A stretch of DNA of 53,415 nucleotides. It comes from Candidatus Zixiibacteriota bacterium (lineage in GTDB: Bacteria; Zixibacteria; MSB-5A5; RBG-16-43-9). The notes below the pieces were generated by a model. It was not told the origin of the DNA. It searched no databases and saw nothing but the letters and a program-made list of their open reading frames with translations. Positions within the stretch are counted from its first letter, which is position 1. Every line of letters starts with the position of its first letter. The stretch spans positions 1-53,415 of the forward strand of contig JALHSU010000261.1 in assembly GCA_022865345.1 (NCBI GenBank), read 5' to 3'. Positions 20,989 through 36,122 of the stretch are shown here, piece after piece. The position numbers and the translations under genes are program-made.

Positions 20989-21006
20989 GGCACGCCGTGC
21001 CCCTAC
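20979..21006. repeat. 28-nt palindrome GTAGGGGCACGGCACGCCGTGCCCCTAC
   Basis: Read directly. It sits in the 27-nt gap between two minus-strand genes and contains the track start codon of the methyltransferase. Confidence 0.95.
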
Positions 21007-21015
21007 TAAAAATTT

Positions 21016-21453: not shown

Positions 21454-21496
21454 TTTTTTATCTCCCTGATTAGACGCGGTGAACTATGTATCTTTT

Positions 21497-21595
21497 GTCA
21501 TTCTGAGGGAGTTCCCTACGGGGACGACCGAAGAATCTCTCGAATCTGATTTTGAAGTTGATTCTCCTCCACGCCAGAGACGGGCTCAGAATGAT
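21497..21595. repeat. GTCATTCTGAG-type inverted-repeat element (inverted relative to 28881)
   Basis: GTCATTCTGAGGGAGTTCCCTACGGGGACGACCGAAGAATC ... GATTCTCCTCCACGCCAGAGACGGGCTCAGAATGAT. Confidence 0.85.
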
Positions 21596-21867
21596 AATTC
21601 TCGTTCTGTGCTGGGAGGGGGATTGTATATCTCTTCCCTATATCGGGAGGGAGTACAACTCCCGCCTTAGCAAGAGTAATCAATCTACTTCGAAGATGTC
21701 AAGGTTTTTTTATGAAAATTTGCCCTTCTCTCCATAAGCAGATTACATTTGACGCACGATCCTGGAGGGTGCAGTCGAGGACAGAGAGGTAGAGTTACCA
21801 CAGCCTGAGGGCGACTGACTACTCCCTTAACTTTCCTTGATCATTTCATCAAACTTAACGATTTTTC

Positions 21868-21896
21868 TTGACTGAACCTTGTCATTATGCTTTAAT
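21868..21896 (+). promoter_or_regulatory. sigma70-like promoter of usp
   Basis: TTGACT (21868-21873), 17 nt spacer, TTTAAT (21891-21896). Confidence 0.55.
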
Positions 21897-21981
21897 TGTC
21901 CAGATAAACTGCAGAATAAATTTTACTTTTTGATAGGATTTCAGAACTGTTTAGAAAATTTACTCGAAGGAGGGAAAACAA

Positions 21982-22455
21982 ATGCTGCCTTTTAAAAAAA
22001 TTCTCTGTCCTACTGATTTCAGCCAGCCTTCTTATGAGTCTCTGAAAATGGCAGGGGAACTGGCATTACACTTCTCATCTGAGCTTTATCTTGTTCATGT
22101 GCTTGCTCCGATTCCGGTAATAACTGCTGCGACTACTCCGATGAGCGCAGGAGCTCCGACCACCAGTTTTGACGTTGTTTTATATGAGAAAGAGCTGAAA
22201 GGCTCGGCAGAGAAAAAGCTTGAAGAGATAACTGATCAGAGACTATCAAAAGAACTCAAAGTCCAGTCATTTCTGGCATACGGAAAAGCCGCAGATGAGA
22301 TCGTGCGGATTGCCGAGAAAGAGAAAATCGATCTCATAGTCATATCAACCCACGGCGAGACTGGCTTCAGGCATCTCATTTTCGGCTCGGTGGCTGAGAG
22401 AGTGGTAAGGCATGCTCCCTGTCCGGTGCTCACTATCCGGGCAGCTCAAAAATGA
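21982..22455 (+). CDS. universal stress protein (UspA family)
   Basis: 157 aa. ...DLIVISTHGETGFRHLIFGSVAERVVRHAPCPVLTIR. GAAGGAGGG SD. Confidence 0.9.
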   Translation: MLPFKKILCPTDFSQPSYESLKMAGELALHFSSELYLVHVLAPIPVITAATTPMSAGAPTTSFDVVLYEKELKGSAEKKLEEITDQRLSKELKVQSFLAYGKAADEIVRIAEKEKIDLIVISTHGETGFRHLIFGSVAERVVRHAPCPVLTIRAAQK

Positions 22456-22475
22456 AGGAGAACTGGGTTCTGACT

Positions 22476-22648
22476 GTCATTGCGAGGAGGTCATTTGACC
22501 GACGAAGCAATCCGTCAGGTCACACGACACTCGACAGGGCTGGCACCCTCAAACTCGTTTGAGGGTGATACCGGAGTATTTTTCAATGAGTAGACCCATC
22601 TTGCCCTCAAGATGGGTTTCCATTCCCGCCTTGCGGGCAAGGCGGGAA
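22476..22648. repeat. four-module hairpin cassette
   Basis: 37-mer identical to 15747-15783 (22476-22512), CACCCTCAAACTCGTTTGAGGGTG (22544-22567), GTAGACCCATCTTGCCCTCAAGATGGGT (22590-22617), perfect 26-nt palindrome TTCCCGCCTTGCGGGCAAGGCGGGAA (22623-22648). Confidence 0.9.
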
Positions 22649-22690
22649 TACCAGATTTGCTTTTTTTCTTCTGAATGAGGACTTTTTAAA

Positions 22691-23326
22691 ATGAGCCCCT
22701 GGTTTATTCTAATTTTAGCACCGGTTTTCATACTCTTGTGGATATTGTTTTTCTCGCACATCTTTGTCCATCTGACGCTGAATGACAAAACAAGAAAGTT
22801 TTCCCTTAACTGGTTAGGTTGTGGTTTCTATCTGGACTGGTCTGCTCAGAAGATTGGCTTTTACCTATTTAACCAGAAGGTCTTGACAAGCTCCGTTAGA
22901 AAGAACCCGGTCAAGGTAAAAAAAGCTGGAAAAACAGGAAAAGTAAATTATATTATCCTCTGGCAGAAAAAAGATACTGTCATTAAGACTTTGAAAATAA
23001 CCCTGCGATCTTTTGTCGATATGCTCAGAAAAACTAAACTTGAGAGATTCTCGTTGAGCTTGAGAGTAGCCACTCCTGATCCAGCCTTGACCGGGATACT
23101 ATATGGAGGGCTTTCAAGCCTGAGTTATTCGCTCGACTCTTATCTACCAGCCGGGTCAGTTTACTTTTATCCTGATTTTCAAGCTGAGACTCCAAGAACG
23201 GATCTGGAGATATCTTTAAAGACCAGGTTTTTCTATATGCTCTGGGTTGGGGTAAAAACTTTTTTGCTTTTGCCAAAAATATCCCTGGTAAAAACTATGA
23301 GAAAACTTTTCATTAAAGGGAGGTGA
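22691..23326 (+). CDS. DUF2953 (YtfI-like) membrane protein
   Basis: 211 aa with an N-terminal TM segment. Translationally coupled to a YtfJ/GerW-like gene as in the Bacillus ytfI-ytfJ pair. The assignment rests partly on that context. Confidence 0.55.
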   Translation: MSPWFILILAPVFILLWILFFSHIFVHLTLNDKTRKFSLNWLGCGFYLDWSAQKIGFYLFNQKVLTSSVRKNPVKVKKAGKTGKVNYIILWQKKDTVIKTLKITLRSFVDMLRKTKLERFSLSLRVATPDPALTGILYGGLSSLSYSLDSYLPAGSVYFYPDFQAETPRTDLEISLKTRFFYMLWVGVKTFLLLPKISLVKTMRKLFIKGR

Positions 23327-23331
23327 AAAAT

Positions 23332-23709
23332 ATGGAGAATCCAGCACAGGAGCTTATAAAATCGATCCTGGATGAGCTGAAAGCGATTGCCAAAACCGAG
23401 ACCATCGTGGGAGAGCCGATCACCATCGGGGATAAAACCATCGTTCCGGTCTGCAAGATAACCTTAGGGTTTGGAGCAGGCGGTGGGACTGGAGGAGCAA
23501 AGGATAAAGGAGAGGGAACTGGAAGCGGAGGCGGGGGCGGCGTAGCCATTTTCCCTGCTGCCTTTATCGTGATCAAGGGTGACGAAGTATCGGTATTAGG
23601 GGTAAAACCCGGTAAATGGGAATATATTCTGGAGGCTATTCCCGGAATCATCGAGAAATTCAGGGAAGGGAAAAAAGGTAAAAAGGAAAAAGAGGAGAAA
23701 ACTGAGTAA
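23332..23709 (+). CDS. GerW/YtfJ family protein
   Basis: ORF 23323..23709. ATG 23332 sits 8 nt after AAGGGAGG. TIVGEPITIGDKTIVPV...GFGAGGG...GGGGGVAIFPAAFIVI pattern with a central Gly-rich loop. Confidence 0.8.
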   Translation: MENPAQELIKSILDELKAIAKTETIVGEPITIGDKTIVPVCKITLGFGAGGGTGGAKDKGEGTGSGGGGGVAIFPAAFIVIKGDEVSVLGVKPGKWEYILEAIPGIIEKFREGKKGKKEKEEKTE

Positions 23710-23860
23710 GTTCTGAACTGATGCCCAAAACAGTTTTTGGAGTATAAACCTTTAGGTTTATCTGTTAAGCCCTGTTATTTTTTCTATGCATTCAGGTAAA
23801 GCTGAAGTCACCAGGATCTTGAGACTTTACACTCCGACCAAACATTAAAAAAGAGATGAA

Positions 23861-24778
23861 ATGATGAAAGTTATTACCTATCGGGAATTAGAACCCAAGG
23901 ACCGGTTCATGCTTTTGATGGACCAGGCTTTCTGGTGGCCCCTCTCCCCTGCTCAATTAGAGAGATTGATCAATCTGGATATCAGGCTAAAAAATAGTCC
24001 AGTGGGATTCTGTGCCGTAGAAAATGGAACACTTGCTGGTTATGTTGGAGTTATGGACATTCCCACAAAGACAGTTTCTGGAAATGTAGAGACCGTCGGC
24101 GGGATCTGGTGCGTTGCAACCAATCCCCGTTTTGCCAAAAGAGGGATATGCAAAACCTTAATGGATAAAGCTCACCAGTACTTCCAGCAGAAGAAATACC
24201 CCTTCTCTTTTCTGTGCACCAGCCGAACCATAATCGCCTATGCCATTTATGTGAGAATGGGATACGTTGAGGTGGAGAAAGTAAATAGCTATGCGGAAGC
24301 ATACAAAGTTTTAGGTGAAGCGAAACCTGAAAAAAAATCTGAGACAGAGTTAGACCAGAATAAAATCTTCAATCTCTATCAGGAATTCGTCAAAGATAAA
24401 ACTGGACTTGCAGTCAGGCAGAAGAATTTTCTTGAAGTCTTGTCTGAGCGAAAGAAATTCGACGATAAAAAGTCAGTTCTTATGCAAAAGGGATATGCCC
24501 TGGTCTCAGGACCAAGAGAGGTTTCCAGAATAATGGAGCTAATAAGCTCGGATGAGCAAACCTATCACCAGCTACTTGACCAGGTTGAATCTTTTTCCCC
24601 CAACGGTGTAATCGACCGGATGATCACAGATGAGGAACTCCATCAGGTATATAAAGACAGAGGATACTGTATCGAAGAAGCCGATCATGGAGTGGTGATG
24701 GTCAAAAAATTAGCCCGGTCTGAATTTGAAGAGAAATACGGAAGTGCCTTTCATATAGGGATGATGGATATGTTTTAG
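23861..24778 (+). CDS. GNAT-family N-acetyltransferase with C-terminal extension
   Basis: 305 aa. Acetyl-CoA site-like VATNPRFAKRGICKTLM. Its stop codon TAG (24776-24778) overlaps the first base of a GTCATTGCGAG repeat. Confidence 0.7.
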   Translation: MMKVITYRELEPKDRFMLLMDQAFWWPLSPAQLERLINLDIRLKNSPVGFCAVENGTLAGYVGVMDIPTKTVSGNVETVGGIWCVATNPRFAKRGICKTLMDKAHQYFQQKKYPFSFLCTSRTIIAYAIYVRMGYVEVEKVNSYAEAYKVLGEAKPEKKSETELDQNKIFNLYQEFVKDKTGLAVRQKNFLEVLSERKKFDDKKSVLMQKGYALVSGPREVSRIMELISSDEQTYHQLLDQVESFSPNGVIDRMITDEELHQVYKDRGYCIEEADHGVVMVKKLARSEFEEKYGSAFHIGMMDMF

Positions 24779-24938
24779 TCATTGCGAGGTATGGACCTAA
24801 GTGGTGCATACCGAGAATGTCATTTGACCGACGAAGCAATCCACTGAAAGTGAGTAGGTTCTGTTCAAACTGACTTTAGTCAGGTTTGTTTTTCCCTCTC
24901 CTTTTTAAGGAGAGGGTCAGGGTGAGGTCTCCTCATCA
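24778..24938. repeat. hairpin cassette downstream of the GNAT gene
   Basis: GTCATTGCGAGG half-unit with a 29-nt insertion (24778-24841), CTGACTTTAGTCAG (24870-24883), CCCTCTCCTTTTTAAGGAGAGGG (24894-24916), GGTGAGGTCTCCTCATC. Confidence 0.85.
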
Positions 24939-24978
24939 AGCTATCTGCAGATTTTTCATCCTTTCGCAGGAGGTATTT

Positions 24979-25125
24979 GTGTCAACTTTTAAAAACTTCA
25001 AACTTGCCATCATATTTTTCCTCCTTCTCTTTTTGCCTCTCCCCTGTTTTGCCTTACCTGGCTCACCAGTAAAGGTTCATTTCTTGGACAATGGGATGCA
25101 GGTAATCACCAAGGAGGAGAAATGA
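24979..25125 (+). pseudogene. duplicated 5' fragment (SD, signal peptide and first ~20 mature residues) of the downstream M16 peptidase gene
   Basis: GTG 24979 after GGAGGT. VSTFKNFKLAIIFFLLLFLPLPCFALPGSPVKVHFLDNGMQVITKEEK* aligns with residues 1-47 of the 25923 gene. The stop TGA overlaps the ATG of the next gene. Confidence 0.75.
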
Positions 25126-25739
25126 AAAAGATAGTTTTACTGCTCGCCTGTCTAATGCTTTTGTTTTCTCAGGCTGAGGCGAAAAAGGGGATCAACCTCT
25201 CGCTTGGCCTGGGACACACATGGGCTATTGGAGAGATGGATAAAGCTACTCGTGGCAAAAACAATTTTAATCTGAGTGGTGATTACGAATTCGCTTCAGC
25301 GGGTGCTAATCAATATTTTGCCTTTTTGGTCGGATTAAAATTTAGCTTGCCACGTTTTGATGGCGAAGGAATTTATTACGCCGTTGATCCAGGTGGCCCT
25401 AAGACAATCACCAGCGATTGGCGTTGGGTCGCACTGACTCCATACTTCAAAATATTGATTGACAAAAATGATAAGCCGTTAGTCCCGTATTTCAAATTCG
25501 GGGTTGGGCTATATCATCTGTCGATCAAGTATAATCCAACTACATACCTTGGAGATATTTCCAAGAATTATCTTGGTTATGTAGTAGGTTTTGGCGTGGA
25601 ATACAATATCGGTCGCCTGGCTTTTACCGGCGAGCTTGAAGGAAATTTCGTGCCGCATACTAATCTTGAGTTGTTAACTCATAAAGTGCGGAATTGCAAT
25701 TTCATCAACCCCATGGCTGGAATGACTTTCAGGTTTTAA
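25122..25739 (+). CDS. small outer-membrane beta-barrel protein
   Basis: 205 aa. Signal peptide ...SQAEA, alternating beta-strand pattern, aromatic-rich, C-terminal ...GMTFRF (terminal Phe). Confidence 0.65.
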   Translation: MKKIVLLLACLMLLFSQAEAKKGINLSLGLGHTWAIGEMDKATRGKNNFNLSGDYEFASAGANQYFAFLVGLKFSLPRFDGEGIYYAVDPGGPKTITSDWRWVALTPYFKILIDKNDKPLVPYFKFGVGLYHLSIKYNPTTYLGDISKNYLGYVVGFGVEYNIGRLAFTGELEGNFVPHTNLELLTHKVRNCNFINPMAGMTFRF

Positions 25740-25782
25740 GTAATTTTTAGGCAAAGGTGGCGAGTCGCAGCTTGTTACTGTT

Positions 25783-25861
25783 GTCATTCTGGGCACGCAG
25801 GGCGAAGAATCCCTACAGATTCTTCGGTCGTCTCGCCTCCGGCGGACTCCCTCAGAATGAC
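25783..25861. repeat. GTCATTCTG-type inverted-repeat element (79 nt)
   Basis: GTCATTCTGGGCACGCAGGGCGAAGAATC-CCTACA-GATTCTTCGGTCGTCTCGCCTCCGGCGGACTCCCTCAGAATGAC. Confidence 0.9.
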
Positions 25862-25922
25862 TCGAGGAAATAGAACCTGCTGATAACGTCGGTAATGAAT
25901 AAAGATTCCAAAGGAGGTTTTC

Positions 25923-28547
25923 GTGCCAACTCTCAAAAATTATAAACCGTTAATCCTGTTTCTCCTCCTCCTCTTTTTACCTCTCCCCTGTTTTGCCCTA
26001 CCCGGCTCACCAGCAAGGGTTCATTTCTTGGATAACGGGATGCAGGTAATCACCAAGGAGGAGCATTCCAAAAATTTGATTGCTCTTAATATCTATGTAA
26101 AAGGGGGAAGCAGGACTGAGACACCGGAATTGAGCGGGTTGAGCCATTATTATGAGCATCTCATTTTTAGAGGAGGGACTGATAAGCAGAAGGAGCTGGA
26201 GACCAGGAAGGTTTTCCAGAGCCTGGGACAGTTTTTCGGATTCACCAGTGAGGATGTGACCTGTTATTATATGGTCGCTCCAAAGGAGAACCTGGATGAG
26301 GCTTTGTGGAGATATGCAGATGCAGTGATGAATCTCAAGGTTACCCAGGAGAGGATTGAATCTGAAAGACAGGTGGTCTTAGAAGAGTTCAATATGGATG
26401 AAGACCAGCCGGGTTATGCAGTCTGGCTACTTCTGGAGAAGAATGCTTATCGGACTCACCCGTATGGACAGACGGTTTTGGGCTCAAGAGAAGTTATCAA
26501 AAATGCCGATTTGGACCGGTTCAAAACCTTTTATCAGGAAAGGTATGTGCCCAACCAGATGGTGATGGCAATAGTGGGAGATTTCAACACGGATGAGATG
26601 ATGACGAAAATCAACTCCCTTTTTGGAAAATATCCCAGGGGAAAAGAATCGTTCGAATTAGAAAGACCTGAACCAGAACAAACAAAATTCTGGCAGGCTT
26701 TTAAAAGGATGAAATCCAGCTCCAGCTATCTTAACATCGGTTTCCACATCCCGGAGGCAACGCATCCGGATATCCCGGTTTTAGACGTGCTGAACGTGAT
26801 CTTAGGCCAGGGCGAAAGCTCCCGGCTTTACCAGGCATTGAAAAAAGAAGATAATCTGGCATATTCTGTAGGCTCTTCAGTTGACCAGAGGAAAGATCCC
26901 GGTCTTTTTGAAATCTATACTCAGTTAGACCCGAAAAATGAAACAAAGGTTGTGAATATTGTCTTTAAGGAGTTGAGCAAATTGTGGCAGAAAGAGGTTT
27001 TGCCAGAGGAAATAGATAAAGCTAAGTCCAAGATCGAGAATTCATATTATTTCGATAACCAGACCTATCTAAGCCAGGCACAGCGTTTATCTTATTATGC
27101 GGCAAATAGCGACCTGTTGCTTGAGTCTTCATATTTAGACCGGATCCGAAGCACCACACCTTCTGATATAAAAAGGGTAGCTTTGAAGTATCTGAAACCC
27201 TCGAATGCAACTTTAGCTGTAGTCGAACCAGAGGATGCTCCAGAAAACTCTTTTATTGACATAGCGGAAAAATATGATTCTCTTTTACCTGCTCAGGCAA
27301 AAGAGGAGATAAAAGCCAAACCTGAGAAGATCGTCCTTCCAAACGGCTTGACACTGCTTCTAAAAGAAGACCATTCCTCAAAAACCATTGCCCTGGAAGG
27401 TTATATCAAAGGAGGATTATGGTTGGAAGATGCGAAAAATGCCGGCATCTGCAATTTTGTAACCGAGATGCTTCTCAAGGGAACAAAAGAATATTCCTTA
27501 GACCAGATTGCCCAAAAGATCGACAGTCTGGGAATCGAGCTTTATGCCCAGAGCACTCCTGACTATGCCCGGGTTTCCCTTTTGGCTACTCCGGAGACAT
27601 TTAAACCTGGACTGGACCTTTTCTCTCAAGCCCTGTTTTATCCTGTTTTTCCGGAAAAAGAAATGGAGAACACCAGAACCGACATCATCGCTCAAATCCA
27701 GAAAGTCAAAGACTCAAGTTATGATCTGACCAACCAGGAGTTTGCCAGAGATATCTACATCAAATCACCTTACAAAAGGCCAGTGTTAGGGTATGAGGAA
27801 ACCGTGAGCAAGCTCTCCCCTGAAGAACTCAGGAGTTTTCATAAACGGGTTTTCGTCCCTTCTAATATTATTTTATCTGTAGTCGGAGATTTCAATTCAG
27901 AAGAGATAAAAAATCTTCTTAAATCCGAATTCGAAAAAGTCCCGGCCGCTCCTGCTCAGAAGTTTTCGTTGATAGATGAGCCAGCCCAGGAAAAGGGAAA
28001 ATCGCGGATAATTACCCAGGAAAAGCTTCAGACCACTTTCAACCTGGGAAGAATGGGGGTTAAAATAACCAGCCCTGACTATTTATCTTTGAAATTAGTG
28101 GAAAGGATTTTAAGCTCCCGGCTGTTTTTCAAATACGTTTATGAGGAGGGCATGGCTTACCGGATGTGGACTTATATGCAGCCCCACCTGGGCTCAGCCC
28201 CTTTCACTTTTGAGATGGGTGTATCCCCGGAGAATTTCACCAAAGCCAGAACCGGAATTTTGAGTGAAGTCCAGACCTTGCTGAAGTCTCCATTGTCTGA
28301 AAGTGAGGTGCAAACTGCAAAAGCCAACCTGATCTCCGGATTCTATCTTTCCCAGCAGACCAATACTGACCAGGCAAGGACCATGGCTTTCTACGAGATG
28401 GCAGGTTTAGGGTATCTGTATGCTGAGAGCTATCCGGACCTGGTAAATCGGGTGAAAACCTCAGAGATAGCCTCTGCGGCGAAAAAATACTTGGAACCAG
28501 ATAAATTCACTCTGGTGGCAGTTGGTAAAACCGAAGAGAAAAAATAA
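25923..28547 (+). CDS. M16 (pitrilysin) family zinc peptidase, two tandem M16 units, secreted
   Basis: 874 aa. GTG start after AAAGGAGG. Signal peptide. HYYEH (HxxEH) zinc motif in the first unit only; the second unit is non-catalytic. Confidence 0.9.
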   Translation: MPTLKNYKPLILFLLLLFLPLPCFALPGSPARVHFLDNGMQVITKEEHSKNLIALNIYVKGGSRTETPELSGLSHYYEHLIFRGGTDKQKELETRKVFQSLGQFFGFTSEDVTCYYMVAPKENLDEALWRYADAVMNLKVTQERIESERQVVLEEFNMDEDQPGYAVWLLLEKNAYRTHPYGQTVLGSREVIKNADLDRFKTFYQERYVPNQMVMAIVGDFNTDEMMTKINSLFGKYPRGKESFELERPEPEQTKFWQAFKRMKSSSSYLNIGFHIPEATHPDIPVLDVLNVILGQGESSRLYQALKKEDNLAYSVGSSVDQRKDPGLFEIYTQLDPKNETKVVNIVFKELSKLWQKEVLPEEIDKAKSKIENSYYFDNQTYLSQAQRLSYYAANSDLLLESSYLDRIRSTTPSDIKRVALKYLKPSNATLAVVEPEDAPENSFIDIAEKYDSLLPAQAKEEIKAKPEKIVLPNGLTLLLKEDHSSKTIALEGYIKGGLWLEDAKNAGICNFVTEMLLKGTKEYSLDQIAQKIDSLGIELYAQSTPDYARVSLLATPETFKPGLDLFSQALFYPVFPEKEMENTRTDIIAQIQKVKDSSYDLTNQEFARDIYIKSPYKRPVLGYEETVSKLSPEELRSFHKRVFVPSNIILSVVGDFNSEEIKNLLKSEFEKVPAAPAQKFSLIDEPAQEKGKSRIITQEKLQTTFNLGRMGVKITSPDYLSLKLVERILSSRLFFKYVYEEGMAYRMWTYMQPHLGSAPFTFEMGVSPENFTKARTGILSEVQTLLKSPLSESEVQTAKANLISGFYLSQQTNTDQARTMAFYEMAGLGYLYAESYPDLVNRVKTSEIASAAKKYLEPDKFTLVAVGKTEEKK

Positions 28548-28570
28548 ACTCTTAAATCAAGGAGGAGCAG

Positions 28571-28792
28571 ATGAAAACCAATGAAAGCGGTGCTGACCGG
28601 CTGATCCGCATAATAGTCGGCATCCTTCTTTTCATATTAGGCTGGCTGGTCTTAAAAAACCGCGTTCTGGGGATAATCTTTGATATCCTCGGTATAATCC
28701 TTTTTATCACCGGCATAACCGGCTTTTGCGGGTTGTATAAGCTCTTTTGCATCAATACCAAAAAGGAGGAGACGCCGCAAAAACCTGCTTGA
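28571..28792 (+). CDS. DUF2892 (YgaP-like) small membrane protein
   Basis: 73 aa. ADRLIRIIVGILLFILG...GITGFCGLYKLF pattern. AAGGAGGAG SD. Confidence 0.8.
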   Translation: MKTNESGADRLIRIIVGILLFILGWLVLKNRVLGIIFDILGIILFITGITGFCGLYKLFCINTKKEETPQKPA

Positions 28793-28810
28793 GATTATGC
28801 TCTGTGCTCT

Positions 28811-29132
28811 TGGCGGATGTTATCATCCACCAAGGAGGTCAGAGAGGATGATAACATCCTCGCTGATTGAGCAGACAAATGTCATTCTGAGCCCGCAGGG
28901 CGAAGAATCTGTAGATTCTTCGGTCGTCCATTTGGACTCCCTCAGAATGACAACAGTCGGGTGACACCCTCAAACTTGTTTGAGGGTGATGCAGATGTGT
29001 CGTTCTGAGCCCGAAGAGGCGAAGAATCTATAGTCAACCTGTACACCCAGGTTGCCCTCAACCTGGGTTCATATTCCCACCTTGCGGGCAAGGTGGGAAT
29101 ACCACTGACGTTCGAACTGACTTCAGTCAGGT
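28811..29132. repeat. array of seven hairpin modules between DUF2892 and EamA genes
   Basis: GGATGTTATCATCC...GGATGATAACATCC (28811-28866), GTCATTCTGAG element (28881-28951), CACCCTCAAACTTGTTTGAGGGTG (28965-28988), GTCGTTCTGAG half-unit (28999-29028), ACCCAGGTTGCCCTCAACCTGGGT (29044-29067), TTCCCACCTTGCGGGCAAGGTGGGAA (29074-29099), AACTGACTTCAGTCAGGT (29115-29132). Confidence 0.9.
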
Positions 29133-29221
29133 AATGCTTACGCAGTGAAAATCTTTTGAGCCTTTGAGCAATTAAACCAACGAGGGTTCCACCGTTATAC
29201 CTTTCAAATAGACAAAGCCTG

Positions 29222-30133
29222 ATGAATTCTTCTTCTGCCAGAAGCAGTAATTTTCTCCCCTCTTTTTTGTTTGCCGTTTTATGCCTGATCTGGGGCTCAA
29301 CCTGGTTGGGCATAAAGATAGGATTGGAGGACTCTCCTCCATTTTTGTCTGCTGGCTTCAGGTTTCTCATTGCTACGCTCTTCCTCTTTTTCTGGGCGAA
29401 GAAAAAAGGGATAAAATTTTCTGATTATAAAAGCCAGGCATTCAAAATCCTCATCCCTGGCTTTTTTATGTATTATCTTTCCTATTCCCTGGTTTACTGG
29501 GGTGAGCAGTATATAAATTCGGGGTTGACCGCAGTTCTATTTGCCACCCTTCCCTTTTTTGTGTCTATCTTTGCCACCCTGTTTTTAAAAGAAGAAAAGC
29601 TCACCTGGTTCAGATTGTTCGGGCTTGTAGTAGGATTCTCCGGCATTCTTTTAATCTTCCGGGATAGCCTAAGCCTTGAAGGAGAAAACCTGCTTCACGG
29701 AATGATTGGGATTATATTGAGTGCTGGTTTTTCAGCCTACGCTTCGGTCAGGGTTAAAAGAGACCTGCATTCAGTCGAGCCGGTAGTCATCTCAGTCTTT
29801 CAGATGGGATTGGGAACCATGCTCCTGTTAGGTTCAGGATTTCTATTTGAGAAAATCACCGATTTCAAGCTAACTTATAAATCCATCGGCGCATTGTTTT
29901 ATCTATCCTTTTTTGGCTCAGCTTTCGCTTTTATGTCTTATTACTGGCTTCTGAAGAGAATAGAGGTTACCAAACTGTCCCTGATAGCTTTCATCACCCC
30001 GATCGTGGCTTTGATCTTAGGCTGGCTGGTCCTGGGAGAGAGTATCAGCGGATACTTGATTTCCGGAACGGTTTTAGTTATAATAGGTATTTGGCTGGTC
30101 TCAAGATATGGCATAGCCGGACGGAAAAAGTAA
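29222..30133 (+). CDS. EamA/DMT-superfamily transporter
   Basis: 303 aa, about 10 TM segments, two EamA-like halves. The start is uncertain because its 5' end abuts a hairpin array. Confidence 0.85.
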   Translation: MNSSSARSSNFLPSFLFAVLCLIWGSTWLGIKIGLEDSPPFLSAGFRFLIATLFLFFWAKKKGIKFSDYKSQAFKILIPGFFMYYLSYSLVYWGEQYINSGLTAVLFATLPFFVSIFATLFLKEEKLTWFRLFGLVVGFSGILLIFRDSLSLEGENLLHGMIGIILSAGFSAYASVRVKRDLHSVEPVVISVFQMGLGTMLLLGSGFLFEKITDFKLTYKSIGALFYLSFFGSAFAFMSYYWLLKRIEVTKLSLIAFITPIVALILGWLVLGESISGYLISGTVLVIIGIWLVSRYGIAGRKK

Positions 30134-30157
30134 AAGGTATCATGCTTGCGAGGGTGG

Positions 30158-30242
30158 CACCCTCAAACTTGTTTGAGGGTGATGCAGGAGATTTATACAA
30201 ATGCCTTTGATTTATATTCCCGCCCTGTGGCAAAGGTGGGAA
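30158..30242. repeat. hairpin cassette upstream of cysK
   Basis: CACCCTCAAACTTGTTTGAGGGTG (30158-30181) and the degenerate TTCCCGCCCTGTGGCAAAGGTGGGAA (30217-30242). Confidence 0.85.
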
Positions 30243-30278
30243 TACCGATTGACAACCAAGAAAACGGAAAGGTAAAAT

Positions 30279-31199
30279 ATGAGAATGGCAAAAAGCATTC
30301 TGGAACTGATCGGGCAAACTCCGATAGTCAGATTAAACCGGGTTACCAGTGAAGTCAAGCCAGAGATCTGGGCTAAATTAGAGATGTTTAACCCTACCGG
30401 AAGCGTTAAGGACCGGATTGCCCTTTATATGATTGAACAGGCAGAAAAAAAGGGGATCTTAAAAAAAGGCGGAGTTATTGTAGAGCCTACTACTGGAAAT
30501 ACTGGCATAGCTCTGGCGGCTGTAGCAGCCATTAAGGGGTACAGGATGATAGCGGTTATGTCCGAGGCGATGAGCCTGGAAAGAAGAAGGATCATCAAAG
30601 CTTTTGGAGGAGAGGTGGTCTTAACCCCGGCTATAGAGGATGCTGCCGGAGCTATTAGTAAAGCCCGGGAAATAGTAAGAACTACTCCTAACTCCTTTAT
30701 GCCGGATCAGTTCACCAATTTCGACAATATCCAGGCACATAAAGAGACTACTGCCCGGGAGATCCTCGAACAGACTGAAGGTAAATTAGATGTTGTGGTA
30801 ATTGCGGCTGGAACCGGCGGGACTTTTTCTGGGGTAGCCGAGGTTTTGAAGAAAGAGATACCAGAGATCAAATGCGTAGTAGTGGAGCCGGCTGGCTCTG
30901 CAGTCCTTTCCGGATGTGACCCGGGACTGCACAAGATCCAGGGAATCGGAGAAGGGTTTATTCCAGAATGTCTCAAGACCCATCTGTGCGATGAGGTCAT
31001 TCCGGTTGGAGATGATGAGGCAATCAACATGGCAAGAAGATTGGCTAAAGAGGAGGGAATCTTGGCCGGGATATCATCCGGTGCCAATGTGTTTGCCGCT
31101 CTACAAGTAGCCACCAAAATGGAAAAGGGGAAAATCCTGACTTTCATCCCGGACAGTGGCCAGCGTTATTTGACTAATGAGTTATTCGCCAATATATAG
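30279..31199 (+). CDS. cysK: cysteine synthase (O-acetylserine sulfhydrylase)
   Basis: NPTGSVKDR PLP-lysine motif, GTGGT loop and SSGAN motif. Confidence 0.92.
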   Translation: MRMAKSILELIGQTPIVRLNRVTSEVKPEIWAKLEMFNPTGSVKDRIALYMIEQAEKKGILKKGGVIVEPTTGNTGIALAAVAAIKGYRMIAVMSEAMSLERRRIIKAFGGEVVLTPAIEDAAGAISKAREIVRTTPNSFMPDQFTNFDNIQAHKETTAREILEQTEGKLDVVVIAAGTGGTFSGVAEVLKKEIPEIKCVVVEPAGSAVLSGCDPGLHKIQGIGEGFIPECLKTHLCDEVIPVGDDEAINMARRLAKEEGILAGISSGANVFAALQVATKMEKGKILTFIPDSGQRYLTNELFANI

Positions 31200-31214
31200 G
31201 TCAAACTTTGTTCT

Positions 31215-31545
31215 AACTGACTTTAGTCAGGTCTCTCCTTCTCCTTTTTAAGGAGAGGGATTAAGGGTGAGGTTATTGTCCTGACTGACTAAGCTCCTGG
31301 TGGATGTTATCATCCATCAGAAAAGAGTCAGCGAGGATGATAACATCCTCGCTGAGCAAGGTTCCCCTCTCCTTACAGGAGAGGGTTAGGATGAGGTCAC
31401 CGTTCTAATTTCGGCAAACCCATCTTGCCCTAAAGATGGATTTATAAGACCCCGCCTTGAGGGCAAGGCGGGGCTACGTGGGTTATTCTGATTTAGACGG
31501 TAAACCCACAGCCTGCCCGTAGGGCTACCCTCAACCTGGGTAGCG
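31215..31545. repeat. largest hairpin array in the window (nine or more modules)
   Basis: AACTGACTTTAGTCAGGT, CCTTCTCCTTTTTAAGGAGAGGG, GGTGGATGTTATCATCCATCA...GAGGATGATAACATCCTC (31298-31354), CCCTCTCCTTACAGGAGAGGG, ACCCATCTTGCCCTAAAGATGGAT, CCCCGCCTTGAGGGCAAGGCGGGG, GTGGGTT...AACCCAC, CTACCCTCAACCTGGGTAG. Confidence 0.85.
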
Positions 31546-31591
31546 GGCGGGATTACCTTCAACAGGAGAACTCAACTCTTCAGGAGACAAA

Positions 31592-32287
31592 ATGACTAAC
31601 TTAGAAAATATAATCGACCGCCAGATAAAAAGATGGGAATTAGAGAAAAAGAAGAGAGAGGAAGAGCAAAAAGCTCAGGTTAAAGAGATTTTCCCGGGAC
31701 CTGTGATAACCGTATCCAGAGAAAGGGGGAGTCGAGGGAGTTATCTGGCAAGGATTTTGGCTGAGAAACTCAACTATCAGCTTGTTCACCGGGAGATAAT
31801 AGATTATATGGTCAAGGATACCGGAGTAAGACGCAGGTTGATAGAATCCTTGGATGAAAAGGTTAAATCTGAAATAGAGCTGTGGGTGGAGGGACTTTTG
31901 AAAGGAAAATATTTAGGCAAAAGCGATTACCTTTATCATTTAATGAAATCGATTTTAGCTATAGCCCAGCATGGCGAAACTGTAATTATCGGTAGAGGCG
32001 CAAATTTCGTCCTGGGCTTGGAAAAAGGTTTTCATATCAGGATTGTCGCTCCAATTGAAAAAAGAATCGAAAACCTGATTGTCTACAAGCATTTCAATGC
32101 AGCCCAAGCCAAAAAGGAAATCGAGCGTGGAGATAAAGAGCGAAAAGAATTTATTCATACCTTTTTTGGGAAAAATATTGATGACCCTTCTTCTTATGAC
32201 CTCATCTTAAACACAGCTAATTTCCAGATCGAAGAAGCTTTGGACTTGATATTAAAAGCTTTTGATTCAAAATTCAAAAAAACGTAG
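31592..32287 (+). CDS. cytidylate kinase-like family protein
   Basis: 231 aa. VITVSRERGSRGSYLARILAEKL P-loop-like block typical of the Cytidylate_kin2 family. Confidence 0.7.
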   Translation: MTNLENIIDRQIKRWELEKKKREEEQKAQVKEIFPGPVITVSRERGSRGSYLARILAEKLNYQLVHREIIDYMVKDTGVRRRLIESLDEKVKSEIELWVEGLLKGKYLGKSDYLYHLMKSILAIAQHGETVIIGRGANFVLGLEKGFHIRIVAPIEKRIENLIVYKHFNAAQAKKEIERGDKERKEFIHTFFGKNIDDPSSYDLILNTANFQIEEALDLILKAFDSKFKKT

Positions 32288-32354
32288 AGACGCATCGTCT
32301 GCATCTTTCTTTTGTCATTCTGAAGGAGTCCCCTACGGGGACAACTGAAGAATC
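32284..32354. repeat. degenerate GTAGAGACGCAT hairpin plus GTCATTCTGAAGGAG half-unit
   Basis: GTAGAGACGCATCGTCTGCATC (32284-) and GTCATTCTGAAGGAGTCCCCTACGGGGACAACTGAAGAATC (32314-32354). Confidence 0.75.
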
Positions 32355-32502
32355 TGGTTTTCCTTCACGACCAGATGCTTCGCTAAGCTCAGCCTGACAC
32401 CGACCGCTACACTTCACTTCGGCATCATCACGGATTATGCATTCATATTCCAGTAAACTAACTTCCCTTTTTCCATCTTTCGTTTTTCACCCCATTTTCT
32501 CC

Positions 32503-32531
32503 TTGACAACTCCTACAAATACCTTAATATT
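32503..32531 (+). promoter_or_regulatory. sigma70-like promoter of lpxC/fabZ-lpxA
   Basis: TTGACA (32503-32508), 16 nt spacer, TAATAT (32525-32530). Confidence 0.55.
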
Positions 32532-32571
32532 ACTCAAAAATTTTGAAGCAGATCTCAACTAAGATAGATAT

Positions 32572-33972
32572 ATGGAAAAATATCAGAAAACCATCAAGAA
32601 ACCAGCCACTTACACCGGCGTGGGACTACATACCGGAAACAAAACCACTGTGACCTTTAAGCCTGCTCCGGTTAATCACTGGATCAGCTTTGTCCGCAAG
32701 GATCTGCCTGATTCTCCGGAAATTCCGGCTGACATTGAACACGTGGTCGATATGACCAGGGGAACCACACTGGGCAAAGGAAATGTAAAAGTCTACACGG
32801 TGGAGCACGTCCTGGCCGCAGTAGTGGGACTGGAAATTGACAATCTGACAATCGAGTTAGATAACGATGAGCCTCCAGTAGGAGACGGCAGTTCACTCCC
32901 CTTTGTCCAGGCACTGAACTCAGCTGGCATACAGGAACAGGATGTTCCGAAAAATTTCATCCAGGTTGATACTCCCTTGATCCACTCTGATAAGGAAAGA
33001 GGAGTTGATATAGCCGCCTTCCCGGCGGATGATTTACGAATTACCTTTATGATTGATTATCGCAACCCTGCTTTGGGTACCCAGTATACTTCCCTGATTT
33101 CCCTGAAAGATGAGTTCGTCAAGGAGTTTGCCCCGGCCAGGACCTTTTGTTTTCTGCACGAGTTGGAGATGCTCAAAGAAAAAGGGTTGATCAAAGGCGG
33201 GGGATTAGAAAGCTCCATAGTGATCTGTGATAATGATATGGGTCAGGAGGACCTGGAAAAGCTTAAGGCACTGTTTGGTTTGAAAGATAAGGTTTTCGTG
33301 GGCAAAACCGGCATCCTGAATGACGTTCCCCTGAGATTTTATAACGAGCCTGCCAGGCATAAGGCTTTAGACCTTTTAGGTGATCTCTCCCTGATCGGCG
33401 TTCCATTAAAAGCCCATATCTTGGCTGCCAGATCAGGCCATGCAGCTAATGTGGCTTTAGTCAAGAAACTGCACCAGCTTTATGAGAAGAAACTTATAGC
33501 CAGCAAATATCAGGAGAAAATAAAGAAAGGGGATTATCTTTTAGATGCCAGGGCTATCCAGAAAATAATGCCTCACCGTTATCCCTTCCTCCTGGTGGAC
33601 AGGGTCATAGATTTAATCCCCAAGGAAAGAGTGGTGGCAATCAAGAACGTTACCCTGAATGAGCCTTTTTTTGCGGGACATTTTCCGGATCATCCTATTA
33701 TGCCTGGGGTGTTGATAATCGAGGCGATGGCTCAGGCAGGTGGAATCCTTTTATTGAACACAGTTGATAACCCGGAAGAAAAAGTGGTCTACTTTATGGG
33801 AATGGATGAGGTTAGGTTCAGAAAGCCGGTCCTACCTGGGGACCAGTTGCGTTTTGAGCTGGATATGATTCAATATAGAAAAGGAGGAGCCTGTAAGATG
33901 CAGGGAAAAGCCTTCTTAGGCGAGGATCTGGCAGCAGAGGCAATCCTTTTAGCAACCATAATGGATAAATAG
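32572..33972 (+). CDS. lpxC/fabZ: bifunctional UDP-3-O-acyl-GlcNAc deacetylase / 3-hydroxyacyl-ACP dehydratase (LpxC-FabZ fusion)
   Basis: 466 aa. The N-terminal part is LpxC-like (TGVGLHTG, TVEHVLAA, HKALDLLGDL). The C-terminal part is FabZ hotdog (LPHRYPFLLVDRV, FFAGHFP, PGVLIIEAMAQ). Confidence 0.93.
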   Translation: MEKYQKTIKKPATYTGVGLHTGNKTTVTFKPAPVNHWISFVRKDLPDSPEIPADIEHVVDMTRGTTLGKGNVKVYTVEHVLAAVVGLEIDNLTIELDNDEPPVGDGSSLPFVQALNSAGIQEQDVPKNFIQVDTPLIHSDKERGVDIAAFPADDLRITFMIDYRNPALGTQYTSLISLKDEFVKEFAPARTFCFLHELEMLKEKGLIKGGGLESSIVICDNDMGQEDLEKLKALFGLKDKVFVGKTGILNDVPLRFYNEPARHKALDLLGDLSLIGVPLKAHILAARSGHAANVALVKKLHQLYEKKLIASKYQEKIKKGDYLLDARAIQKIMPHRYPFLLVDRVIDLIPKERVVAIKNVTLNEPFFAGHFPDHPIMPGVLIIEAMAQAGGILLLNTVDNPEEKVVYFMGMDEVRFRKPVLPGDQLRFELDMIQYRKGGACKMQGKAFLGEDLAAEAILLATIMDK

Positions 33973-34009
33973 CCTTTAAGCTTAACCCTTCTTCCTTTTT
34001 TCATCTCTA

Positions 34010-34780
34010 ATGAATATTCATCCAACCGCTATAGTCGACCCTAAAGCCGAATTAGGCAAAAATATCTCCATTGGTCCTTATACCATAATCAATGAAGGCG
34101 TCCGGATCGGGGATAATGTGCAGATAGGCTCTAATGTTCTGATCGACTCAGGCGCGATTATAGGAAGAAACTGCAAGATTCATCACGGCGCTGTTTTAGG
34201 GACCCCGCCTCAGGATTTGAAATTTGGAGGAGAAAAAACTATTCTGGAGATTGGTGAAAATACCGTGATCCGGGAATATGCCACCATAAATCGCGGGACC
34301 AGACATCGGGGTAAGGTCACTGTTGGCTCTAATTGTTTCATAATGATGTATGCTCACATAGCTCACGACTGCATAATCGGAAACAATGTTATCTTAGCTA
34401 ACTCGGTCAATTTAGCAGGTCACGTGGAGGTTGAGGATTACGCCATCATCGGCGGAGTGGTTCCGGTTCACCAGTTCACCCGAATCGGAGCCCACTCCAT
34501 CATCGGGGGAGGGTTCCGGGTTCCCAAGGACGTTCCTCCTTATATCTTAGCTGGAGGGTATCCTTTACGCTATATAGGACTAAATATCATCGGTCTAAAA
34601 AGGAGAAATTTCTCCGCAGATACCATTCTGGCTTTGAAGAAAGCTTGCAGGATCCTGTTTCAATCACAGTATAATACAACCCAGGCAGTAGAGAAAATCA
34701 AATCCGAAATCGAGCCTCTTCCTGAGATAAAACACCTCTTGGAATTTATTGAAAAAAGCGAAAGAGGAATTATAAAATAA
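34010..34780 (+). CDS. lpxA: acyl-ACP:UDP-GlcNAc O-acyltransferase
   Basis: 256 aa. IHPTAIVDP start, hexapeptide repeats, C-terminal helical domain. Confidence 0.93.
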   Translation: MNIHPTAIVDPKAELGKNISIGPYTIINEGVRIGDNVQIGSNVLIDSGAIIGRNCKIHHGAVLGTPPQDLKFGGEKTILEIGENTVIREYATINRGTRHRGKVTVGSNCFIMMYAHIAHDCIIGNNVILANSVNLAGHVEVEDYAIIGGVVPVHQFTRIGAHSIIGGGFRVPKDVPPYILAGGYPLRYIGLNIIGLKRRNFSADTILALKKACRILFQSQYNTTQAVEKIKSEIEPLPEIKHLLEFIEKSERGIIK

Positions 34781-34785
34781 CCATG

Positions 34786-34822
34786 TAGGAGCGGGGTTTC
34801 CCCGCCCCTTAGGTTTTTTTTA
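34786..34822 (+). terminator. Rho-independent terminator after lpxA (also a member of the GTAG hairpin family)
   Basis: GTAGGAGCGGGG-TTTC-CCCGCCCCTTAGG followed by TTTTTTTT. Confidence 0.75.
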
Positions 34823-34835
34823 TATCTGCTTTCGG

Positions 34836-34891
34836 TTGGTCTCCAGACCAATTGAGGGCTTTGGTAGGGGCAATTCATGAATTGCCCCTAC
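34836..34891. repeat. TTGGTCTCCAGACCAA hairpin plus perfect 28-nt palindrome GTAGGGGCAATTCATGAATTGCCCCTAC
   Basis: 34836-34851 and 34864-34891, read directly. Confidence 0.9.
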
Positions 34892-34969
34892 ACTGAAAAT
34901 TCAACTTCATCGAAGCCATTTTAGAATCACCTGTTCATTCTCCTCCATACAAAATTTTTACAAAACTTC

Positions 34970-34998
34970 TTGACAATCGGGATCTCTTTGTTTATAAA
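34970..34998 (+). promoter_or_regulatory. sigma70-like promoter of the ccp / heme-barrel pair
   Basis: TTGACA (34970-34975), 17 nt spacer, TATAAA (34993-34998). Confidence 0.6.
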
Positions 34999-35043
34999 TA
35001 GATAAGTTGAACACCATTTAAACTTATATCAAAAGGAGGTTAT

Positions 35044-36111
35044 ATGAACAAATTTATATTTATTTTGTTTGTTCTCATCCTGTTTCTCCCATCTTTTGCT
35101 ACAGCTGAAAACTCTTCCCCTACACCCGTAACCGCAGTAAACGTTCATCTTCTCGGCCCTGAAAAAATAGGCAACCTTATGCCTGTTCCTGTTCCGGTCA
35201 ATAATCCGCAAACCAGTATGAAGATTCTCCTTGGTAAACAGCTTTATTTCGATGCCCGCTTATCTGCAAACAATACCATAAGTTGTGCCTCCTGTCATAA
35301 TCCGGCTATGGGCTGGTCAGATGAAGGACCTACCAGCGTGGGGCATGAGGGAAAAAGGGGCGGAAGAAGAGCACCTCCTGTCTCCAATGCAGCTTATGCC
35401 CCGCTTCAGTTCTGGGATGGCAGAGCACCTACTTTAGAAGAACAGGCAAAAGGACCAATCGAGAATCCGGTGGAGATGGCAAATACTCATACTGCTATGG
35501 TCAGAACATTAAACGACGTTCCCGGATATGTTGAGGAGTTCAAGAAAGTGTTCGGAACAACTCCCATCACGGTTGACCAGGTAGCAGAGGCAATTGCCGC
35601 TTTTGAGCGCACAGTCGTGACCACAGACTCTCCTTTTGACCGTTTTGTAAGAGGAGACAGAAATGCTCTTACCGCGCAGGAGAAAGAGGGGCTGGAAATT
35701 TTTAATGGAAAAGGGCATTGTACTGCCTGTCACTGGGGAGGCTATTTGAGCGATGGAAGATTTCACAACCTCGGAGTAAAACCAACTGACCCTCAAAAAC
35801 CGGACGATGGAAGGTATGTTATAACCAACAATCCTGAAGATAAGGGCGCATTCAAGACCCCGACTGTAAGGGATGCGGCACTCCGTGCTCCATACATGCA
35901 TAACGGCTCCGAAAAGACCTTAGAGGCAGTAGTGGAATTTTACAACCGAGGCGGCGGAAATGACCCGAACCTTGACCCCCTGATAGTCCCGCTTGGGCTT
36001 TCTAAAGAAGAGGTCAAGGCACTGGTTGCCTTTATGAAACGGGCAATGGTCAGCACTAACCCCGAAGTGGCGGATGTAAAACCGATACCATCAAATGAGC
36101 TACCTAAATGA
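35044..36111 (+). CDS. di-heme cytochrome c peroxidase (CCP/MauG family), secreted
   Basis: 355 aa. Signal peptide. Two CxxCH motifs (CASCH, CTACH) and the FKTPTVRD and PYMHNGS blocks. Confidence 0.9.
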   Translation: MNKFIFILFVLILFLPSFATAENSSPTPVTAVNVHLLGPEKIGNLMPVPVPVNNPQTSMKILLGKQLYFDARLSANNTISCASCHNPAMGWSDEGPTSVGHEGKRGGRRAPPVSNAAYAPLQFWDGRAPTLEEQAKGPIENPVEMANTHTAMVRTLNDVPGYVEEFKKVFGTTPITVDQVAEAIAAFERTVVTTDSPFDRFVRGDRNALTAQEKEGLEIFNGKGHCTACHWGGYLSDGRFHNLGVKPTDPQKPDDGRYVITNNPEDKGAFKTPTVRDAALRAPYMHNGSEKTLEAVVEFYNRGGGNDPNLDPLIVPLGLSKEEVKALVAFMKRAMVSTNPEVADVKPIPSNELPK

Positions 36112-36122
36112 AGGAGGGTGAT

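Follow-up and report, generated by a model that had tools for sequence, protein, structure and literature searches.

Intergenic hairpin doublets of a Zixibacteria genome as probable relatives of the Ssn-associated single-stranded DNA repeats

The element at positions 28881-28951 of a Zixibacteria contig consists of two hairpin arms that are inverted around a spacer of four bases, and similar arms recur between the genes on either side. This raises the question of what kind of element it is. A preliminary description, made on basis of the sequence of the window (the whole stretch of 53,415 nucleotides analyzed here), called the element MITE-like, listed its copies in the window and took the changes between its subfamilies as a sign of selection on structure.

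Half-units and doublets in the window

Read directly, the element consists of GTCATTCTGAG-CCCGCAGGG-CGAAGAATC, the spacer TGTA and GATTCTTCGGTCGTCCATTTGGACTCCCTCAGAATGAC, in which the part that follows TGTA is the reverse complement of GTCATTCTGAGGGAGTCCAAATGGACGACCGAAGAATC; the order of arm, spacer and arm is exactly as described before. Folded as a single strand it reaches -18.7 kcal/mol as DNA (z -5.1) and -34.9 kcal/mol as RNA (z -5.4). Using a two-box regular expression in which a few mismatches were allowed, 16 half-units of 25-64 nt were recovered from the 53 kb window, forming six inverted doublets and four singles (Table 1). Markov-shuffled sequence yielded 0.82 half-units on average and never more than 4, which corroborates that the half-units, single or in inverted doublets, make up a true family. 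Extrapolated from the window, the genome would contain around 1,000 copies. The bare 11-mer with two mismatches gave 26 matches against 17 expected and is not significant alone; it is the paired boxes that give the repeat signal.

All copies that had been listed earlier were found to exist, but some needed to be redefined. The GC-type full copy runs from 37854 to 37946 and not from 37856 to 37948, the presumed half-unit 32314-32354 was found to be part of a doublet, its degenerate partner lying at 32374-32398 in inverted orientation, and the presumed half-unit 24778-24841 is a composite with an extra inserted hairpin. The 'GTCATG relative' at 16933-16986 is at best decayed and rearranged, and was matched by none of the unit regular expressions.

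Table 1. Units of the repeat family in the window, in order of position
Position	Type	Half-units and strand	Remarks
10204-10292	doublet	S 10204-10232 (+), L 10255-10292 (-)	between fabH and fabD
15747-15783	single GC-type L half-unit	+	family D14
16933-16986	doubtful decayed relative		GTCATG...CATGAC inverted repeat; two facing 5' boxes without clean 3' boxes; judged by eye
21497-21595	doublet	L 21497-21537 (+), degenerate S 21560-21595 (-)	adjoins ChrB_C gene
22476-22512	single GC-type L half-unit	+	downstream of Usp gene; identical to 15747-15783
24778-24841	composite GC-type unit, 64 nt	+	extra hairpin inserted
25783-25861	doublet	S 25783-25811 (+), L 25818-25861 (-)	61 nt upstream of M16 peptidase gene
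28881-28951	focal doublet	S 28881-28909 (+), TGTA spacer, L 28914-28951 (-)	GTCATT heads outward
28999-29028	single S-like half-unit, slightly degenerate	+	GTCGTTCTGAG...GAAGAATC
32314-32398	doublet	L 32314-32354 (+), degenerate minimal unit 32374-32398 (-)	L with A-T middle-pair variant
37854-37946	GC-type doublet	L 37854-37897 (+), S 37913-37946 (-)	36 nt upstream of GFO_IDH_MocA gene

All copies in the window are intergenic, on what is a housekeeping Zixibacteria chromosome with genes like plsX-fabH-fabD, an lpxC-fabZ fusion, lpxB and the M16 peptidase gene. The genome stems from a sediment metagenome. Logan contigs of the source metagenomes break exactly at 37854/37897 and at 22512, with dozens of different flanks; such sharp breaks at the unit borders indicate that the repeated unit is the half-unit, GTCATT...AATC. 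When the metagenome contigs were mapped on positions 20000-39500 in search of insertion/excision polymorphism, only repeat-induced joints and contig breaks were encountered. A full-text literature search with sequence strings of the element returned primers only, and no record was found for a protein of the window that was looked up by exact match.

Folding of the units and covariation of the stems

The half-units share one order of parts, starting with the 5' tag (T/C/A)GTC and a basal helix of 5 bp; then come an internal loop of tandem G·A, an apical hairpin that varies between units, and a final C. The basal helix is either ATTCT/AGAAT or ATTGC/GCAAT, the latter defining the GC subfamily, which carries one extra A. 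Basically two forms can be discerned: the S form reads GTC / ATTCT / GA / G-stem-loop-stem-C / GA / AGAAT / C, and the L form GTC / ATTCT / GA / GG / GA / G-hairpin-C / GA / CC / GA / AGAAT / C, with two tandem G·A loops that are separated by two G-C pairs. All six doublets in the window are S/L heterodimers with their heads outward (tail-to-tail), which as a single strand fold into a four-way junction or, alternatively, into two hairpins. GTC precedes the helix in all units and, over 15 units, the base before it was T (11), C (2) or A (2) and never G.

The opposed GA/GA positions form tandem G·A/A·G in a Y-GA-R context. As the complementary strand would have C·T/T·C instead, the compact fold should be confined to the GTCATT strand. 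The commonest member of the family is GTCATTGCGAGCGAAGCGAAGCAATC, i.e. GTCATTGC-GA-GCGAAGC-GAA-GCAATC. Among the apical hairpins, GNA accounted for 32 of 68 triloops where around 4 were expected, while GNRA was not enriched (3 of 72 tetraloops), and a C-G pair closed the loop in 130 of 210 cases. These features resemble the d(GCGAAGC)-type DNA mini-hairpins and the Y-GA-R motifs with tandem sheared G·A pairs that Hirao and co-workers reportedly described in the 1990s, both in the GCGAAGC core of the commonest unit and in the strong enrichment of C-G-closed GNA triloops. The latter are biophysical motifs and no genetic elements, and the geometry of the units described here is a presumed one.

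The preliminary description had connected the CT and GC subfamilies via a double compensatory change in the basal helix. The subfamilies are indeed related and the change is both real and general: within loci collected with a pairing-neutral pattern, a 5' CT box went with a 3' AGAAT in 118 of 118 units, and a 5' GC box with a 3' GCAAT in 208 of 215. In another set of loci, chosen on basis of a protein (see below), the basal helix was fully Watson-Crick at the four free positions in 128 of 162 unique units (permuted mean 28, maximum 44), and eight fully paired types were found (TTGC, TTCT, TCCT, CCCT, CTCT, TGCT, TTCC and TGTT). The two middle pairs of the L form behaved likewise. The first was G-C in 33 and A-T in 10 units and Watson-Crick in 44 of 56 (permuted mean 27.5, maximum 38), the A-T variant being represented in the window by 10255-10292 and 32314-32354; the second was G-C in 28 and C-G in 16 units and Watson-Crick in 45 of 56 (permuted mean 23.8, maximum 33). 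For the apical segment a comparison of minimum free energy with shuffled sequence put 31% of the segments at p<=0.05 and had low power for inserts of 5-9 nt, and it was replaced by a permutation test from the outside in. This yielded on average 2.48 consecutive Watson-Crick pairs (permuted mean 1.00, maximum 1.12) and at least 4 bp in 24% of the segments (0.8% permuted), the 76 units with at least 4 apical bp having 26 different 4-nt stems. Every helix thus covaries by permutation, in tests that do not take the tree into account, and given the many independent pair types a constraint on structure is the straightforward reading. The covariation itself is real, in line with what had been proposed.

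An associated GIY-YIG gene and the spread of the family

An autonomous-looking parent with the same termini, for which the preliminary description proposed to search, was found in the form of a unit-ssn-unit cassette. Inspection of the ORFs near the units in pattern-fetched loci revealed small GIY-YIG ORFs bracketed by inverted units (L228, L130 and L190). Five of the GIY-YIG proteins, all with a match to Pfam PF01541, were aligned, and the alignment was used to collect 80 metagenome loci by protein alone. A half-unit was present within 300 nt of the GIY-YIG gene in 63 of these (79%) and on both sides in 43 (54%). Close to the ORF (up to 50 nt away) there were 7.8-9.9 units per kb, as against 0.04-0.07 at distances of more than 1.6 kb, a local enrichment of roughly 100- to 250-fold. 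The recurrent cassette consists of a unit (+), 4-27 nt, the ORF, 10-40 nt and a unit (-); the orientation of the nearest units around ssn is mixed and the head-outward arrangement is not constant.

The nature of the protein follows from a comparison with Neisseria. SsnA is a GIY-YIG protein of 94 amino acids (CDD family cd10448) whose target is the oriented hairpin NTS (CGTCATTCCCGCGMAVGCGGGAATCYRG); SsnA binds this hairpin and makes its cut on the upstream side. It acts on ssDNA only and not on dsDNA, RNA or the reverse strand, and ssDNA-only binding and cutting was reported for four Ssn proteins (Chenal et al. 2025, PMC11893778). Searching plasmid records with tblastn, we came across a gonococcal chromosome filed as plasmid, in which a 94-aa ORF lies amid 12 NTS repeats in 1.46 kb. 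Our alignment matched this ORF with an hhalign probability of 99.6% (E 9e-24), which is much stronger than the match to the closest solved structures, the UPF0213 proteins 1ZG2 (E 4e-15) and 1YWL (E 4e-12). Considering this homology, the small GIY-YIG proteins probably belong to the Ssn family (cd10448) and not to UPF0213/YhbQ. An Ssn-specific model or label was encountered neither in NCBIfam nor in the PDB, and Pfam gives PF01541 alone.

No ssn gene is located within the 53-kb window. Two other contigs (L334, 96 kb in length, and L317) carry an ssn gene that has CT-type units at its flanks and an S/L doublet before it; the L unit of this doublet is 1 nt off that at 28914-28951. Zixibacteria-labelled Ssn homologs (P0150 and P0221) were recovered with 78-82% identity. 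Coverage of L317 in the source metagenome was uneven, with a depth of 31-40 for the flanks, like the window genome, and of 0-10 for the ssn ORF. The low depth suggests that the dominant strain may lack that copy, which would then be absent or polymorphic.

The idea of a local family had to be abandoned. The pairing-neutral pattern recovered at least 120 stretches in IMG/VR and at least 120 in the GTDB species genomes, and around 20 phyla as well as viral contigs occur among the matches listed, going by record titles. These listed matches include Nitrospirota, Nitrospinota, Alpha-, Gamma- and 'Delta'-proteobacteria, Chloroflexota, several CPR lineages, Bacteroidota, Ignavibacteria, Acidobacteriota, Cloacimonadota, Zixibacteria, Cyanobacteria, Melainabacteria, Omnitrophota, Verrucomicrobiota, Deferribacterota, Planctomycetota, Fermentibacteria, Campylobacterota and Bacillota, and those from outlying phyla proved to be true hairpin units. 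Combinations of an oriented ssDNA hairpin and a small GIY-YIG nuclease hence extend to around 20 phyla, with a motif architecture that differs from the published one.

Stems would also covary if a transcript had to fold, and the preliminary description implied such a reading, in which the units act as a structured RNA (3'-UTR stabiliser, attenuator, terminator or small RNA). Folding of the units as RNA is indeed good (half-units z -2.7 to -5.0, the doublet z -5.4 to -7.6), those in the window lie between co-directional genes, relatives have doublets at the same place directly upstream of the M16 and GFO_IDH_MocA genes, and 7 of 9 single units in Zixibacteria loci are co-oriented with the flanking genes. 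This last preference disappears over 71 single units in tandem-gene contexts, of which 35 are co-oriented (19 of 42 on viral contigs and 16 of 29 in genomes), and doublets put one unit on each strand anyhow. Moreover, no Rfam 15 family matched the units, even at E up to 10; on the window only a tRNA-Arg reached the gathering score, and near the element there were chance C/D-box matches with E>1. The triloops are of the GNA type and not GNRA or UUCG, the tandem G·A loops occur on the GTCATT strand only, whatever the direction of transcription, and the family tracks the gene of a DNA nuclease whose relative SsnA, acting on the sister motif, does not bind RNA (PMC11893778). Orientation, loop type, the Rfam result and the SsnA biochemistry together favor an ssDNA structure, and we consider a structured RNA unlikely, though the units may have a secondary effect on transcripts. 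A hammerhead, considered on basis of CUGA...GAA beside GUC, was rejected as it lacks the core G8/A9 and stem I and has no Rfam match.

The same gene association bears on the possibility that the units are a REP/REPIN family mobilized by a RAYT, i.e. an IS200/IS605-like Y1 HUH transposase. The short extragenic palindromes, their inverted doublets and the BIME-like mosaics with other hairpin families would all fit, as would the presence of GTAG-headed hairpins in the same window. The head of the units is (H)GTC and not GTAG, however, and the gene that tracks them encodes a GIY-YIG nuclease: among around 2,160 ORFs from 240 unit-bearing loci the only enriched neighbor clusters, as judged by sequence clustering of the ORFs, were phage, unit-read-through and GIY-YIG ones. 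For the related CGTC-tagged class, too, Di Nocera et al. (2013, PMC3733652) found no transposase. Mobilization by a RAYT is therefore very improbable.

Turnover and the proposed mechanism

The units turn over at short evolutionary distance. Syntenic relatives were ranked by identity of the M16 protein (L249 94%, L241 91%, L244 86%, L245 78% and L247 77%). The focal doublet is common to the window and L249 and absent from L241, L244, L245, L247 and L251, while the single unit at 28999-29028 is unique to the window, being absent from L249 and L241 and part of a three-module insertion relative to both. Other sites are shared with more relatives. Orthologous doublets of 21497-21595 are found in L241, L249 and L250, and a unit identical to 22476-22512 occupies the same site in these three. 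The doublet upstream of the M16 gene has orthologs in L241, L245, L247 and L249 and none in L244 and L250, and the L-S-gene order at the GFO_IDH_MocA gene is kept in L241 and, despite inverted synteny, in L245. Within the orthologous M16 and GFO_IDH_MocA doublets the boxes and termini are unchanged and the apical hairpins quite different, and at 32314-32398 a CT-type doublet in the window and L241 corresponds to a GC-type doublet in L244. Orthologous doublets that keep their boxes and swap their apical hairpins constitute a natural dataset on what the nuclease requires. As a whole, the spacers combine six or more hairpin families into BIME-like mosaics that vary between strains. GTAG-headed hairpins (RAYT type) co-occur in the window.

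Doublets are thus gained and lost between close relatives, and differences between these relatives involve several hairpin modules together. At the filled and empty sites that were compared, no target-site duplication was detected, and none of the empty sites was a clean one with such a duplication. A classical MITE, that is an insertion sequence with terminal inverted repeats and an internally deleted DDE transposase gene, would account for the inverted termini, the small size, the intergenic location and the presence/absence pattern, but no target-site duplication was seen. Furthermore, single half-units behave as repeats with sharp borders of their own, the same termini are shared by around 20 phyla among the matches listed, and the only recurrent internal gene is that of a 95-aa nuclease, all of which makes a classical MITE extremely improbable. 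The term MITE-like nevertheless was partly right, because the unit-ssn-unit cassette shares the termini of the doublets: a same-termini parent with the order unit (+), gene, unit (-) and a turnover of doublets are there, but the gene encodes a GIY-YIG ssDNA nuclease instead of a transposase. Side observations that hint at a long target duplication are an ssn cassette in pheT (L228) and, possibly, the duplicated 5' end of the M16 gene (24968-25129 and 25912-26073).

On balance, the 71-base element is likely to consist of two Ssn-related hairpin repeats joined tail-to-tail, which act as a REP-like DNA element in the single-stranded state. The family is no new kind of element but a structural variant, distinct and very widespread, of the Ssn-associated ssDNA hairpin repeats described in 2025. 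Mechanistically, the GTCATT strand of a half-unit would fold such that an unpaired (H)GTC tag precedes the basal helix, the G·A loop or loops and the apical hairpin, the latter often closed by C-G around a GNA triloop. A cognate Ssn nuclease (a single-domain GIY-YIG protein of around 95-100 aa) would recognize tag and hairpin and, by analogy with SsnA and NTS in Neisseria, nick the single strand a few bases upstream of the unit. By the same analogy, the tandem-G·A class is presumably cut by its own Ssn. As the heads of a doublet point outward, it would offer one site per strand and be cut immediately beyond its ends. A pair of units with this same outward arrangement is found around ssn genes, which makes the doublet look like a gene-less, MITE-like derivative of the cassette, and we infer that doublets were derived from unit-ssn-unit cassettes. 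Possible roles in the Zixibacteria genome are the restriction of incoming ssDNA, the modulation of recombination, or selfish spread; alternatively the doublets might be regulatory, in view of the conserved position of those at the M16 and GFO_IDH_MocA genes in relatives with a protein identity of 77-94%.

A more far-reaching proposal, which we put forward tentatively and hold to be somewhat doubtful, is that unit-ssn-unit cassettes are a new IS-like type of autonomous mobile element that moves without a transposase, by means of a GIY-YIG ssDNA nuclease and host repair. The S/L doublets would then be non-autonomous derivatives, some insertions would duplicate around 100-160 bp of the 5' end of the target gene, and no Ssn motif would be more widespread than the tandem-G·A class, which extends to CPR bacteria and phage contigs.

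Apart from its mechanism, the family has practical consequences. It explains a very common intergenic repeat that ORF callers read through (yielding tails like ...VIARSKATKQS... and ...SELRMTG) and that breaks short-read assemblies, and each pair of motif and nuclease is a candidate new specificity for ssDNA-cutting tools.

Comparison with known systems

The units share with REPIN-RAYT and IS200/IS605 systems that ssDNA hairpins are recognized by a small nuclease-type protein, a likeness that here depends on the proposed mechanism, that a gene is bracketed by inverted repeats, and that gene-less doublets are spread through intergenic DNA. They differ in that the protein is of the GIY-YIG type, without HUH/Y1 motif or known strand transfer, and that the head is GTC and not GTAG. 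The 'CGTC-tagged REPs', a superfamily in which dRS3 and similar repeats were brought together by Di Nocera et al. (2013, PMC3733652), come closer. This class (Neisseria dRS3, Rickettsia RPE-4/6) and the units here share a CGTC, often TGTC, tag, a stem that starts with A-T and then T-A, a short 3' tail, frequent dimers that often are heterodimers, and an occurrence in several phyla, and no transposase was found. The CGTC-tagged REPs were defined by uninterrupted stems of 8-9 bp, loops of 4-5 nt and a tail of 3 nt, whereas the stems here are interrupted and the loops variable; the present family also occurs in far more phyla and has an associated gene.

The closest system is that of NTS, the 'Ssn-related motifs' (SRM) and Ssn, which has been known only since 2025 and for the most part from NTS-like motifs. 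In N. meningitidis SsnA has a modulating effect on natural transformation, and it was pointed out that NTS-ssnA-NTS resembles an insertion sequence (PMC11893778). The stem of NTS is a continuous 8 bp (ATTCCCGC/GCGGGAAT), as opposed to the units studied here, in which a 5-bp stem is followed by a single or double tandem G·A loop and an apical hairpin of free sequence, and which also come in short and long forms that pair as heterodimers. The published search sequence, HGTCWYN(0-2)YYVSBRHN(0-5)WNVSBRGN(0-2)RNCYNB (PMC11893778), gave no match in the window, none in the 80 Ssn loci and one in 138 kb of relatives, against 7 in the gonococcal positive control (L332). Membership of the Ssn repeats therefore rests on tag, hairpin and gene association and not on the published descriptor, and surveys based on the latter, which misses the class entirely, will undercount. 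The likeness itself is considerable. Both systems have many intergenic copies of an oriented hairpin that is unpaired at its HGTC-AT head and ends in a C tail, and both flank the genes of small single-domain GIY-YIG proteins to a similar extent, with motifs on at least one side and on both sides of 79% and 54% of the loci here and of 71% and 42% of the ssnA-homolog regions in the published survey (PMC11893778).

Hairpin families and mosaics in the window

Besides the GTCATT units (Ssn-related hairpin half-units), the window contains GTAG-headed REP-like palindromes (GTAGGGGCGGGGTTTCCCCGCCCC, TGTAGGGGCACGGCACGCCGTGCCCCTAC and GTAGAGACGCATCGCATGCGTCTCTAC), which are families distinct from the GTCATT family, and three further hairpin families (CACCCTCAAACTYGTTTGAGGGTG, ACCCATCTTGCCCTCAAGATGGGT and TTCCCGCCTTGCGGGCAAGGCGGGAATACC). 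The latter three are combined with GTCATT units into BIME-like mosaics, and a composite of two hairpins, 71 nt in length, is found at both 22583-22653 and 29034-29104. Immediately upstream of the focal doublet (28881-28951) lies a palindromic module of 28 nt, TCAGMGAGGATGATAACATCCTCGCTGA, of which the window holds two copies (28839-28866 and 31328-31355). Among the syntenic loci of relatives, the module is present in L244 and L249 and absent from L241. At the end of the window, two tandem paralogous genes share 75-82% DNA identity, and runs of CTGTCTACTGTCTAC (family D16) are located between and after them.

Coordinates of repeat families and open reading frames
Feature	Locus	Coordinates	Strand	Remark
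GTAG-headed REP-like palindromes	window	5297-5319, 6901-6923, 15638-15660, 34787-34809; 20978-21007, 37400-37429; 4555-4580, 47565-47590
Further hairpin families, group 1	window	6788-6818, 22544-22572, 28966-28989, 30159-30182
Further hairpin families, group 2	window	22594-22619, 29045-29070, 31418-31443, 37440-37465
Further hairpin families, group 3	window	22617-22652, 29068-29103, 30211-30246
Tandem paralogous genes	window	47637-50561, 50583-53411	-	~950-975 aa; repeat families D1-D7
ORF called across units	L008	1889-2350
ORF called across units	L011	8669-9043
ORF called across units	L190	6272-6601
GIY-YIG ORFs	L247	666-968, 1134-1478	-	YhbQ/UPF0213-like by eye

Duplicated gene starts

The start of the M16 peptidase gene (~160 nt), comprising the RBS, the signal peptide and 48 codons, occurs twice in the window (upstream copy 24968-25129, second copy 25912-26073; 83-88% identity). 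The two copies are separated by an OMP beta-barrel gene (25122-25739), whose start codon overlaps the stop codon of the truncated M16 copy, and by the doublet 25783-25861. In those relatives in which the interval at this position is readable, the OMP gene is absent. At about 4870-5560 of L228, a locus of a Planctomycetota MAG, an ssn cassette bounded by inverted GC-type units is enclosed by two 116-nt copies (99% identical) of the 5' end of one gene, which reads as pheT when the beginning of these copies is translated. This arrangement looks like an insertion accompanied by a long target duplication leaving the gene intact.

Open reading frames within and near repeats

ORF calls that cross units gain typical peptide tails, such as ...VIARSKATKQS..., ...SELRMTG and ...DSSLRSE, and hypothetical-protein calls are therefore inflated by GTCATT repeats. 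At the gonococcal locus L332 (NZ_CP119140.1, 1881687-1883150), which is part of a 2.17 Mb Neisseria gonorrhoeae chromosome filed in PLSDB as a plasmid, the ssnA-like ORF (589-873 of the locus) carries no annotation in the PLSDB table. Two GIY-YIG ORFs of the Zixibacteria relative L247 have no GTCATT units near them and adjoin a duplicated tRNA-like sequence; they may represent a different GIY-YIG element with a tRNA gene as its target.
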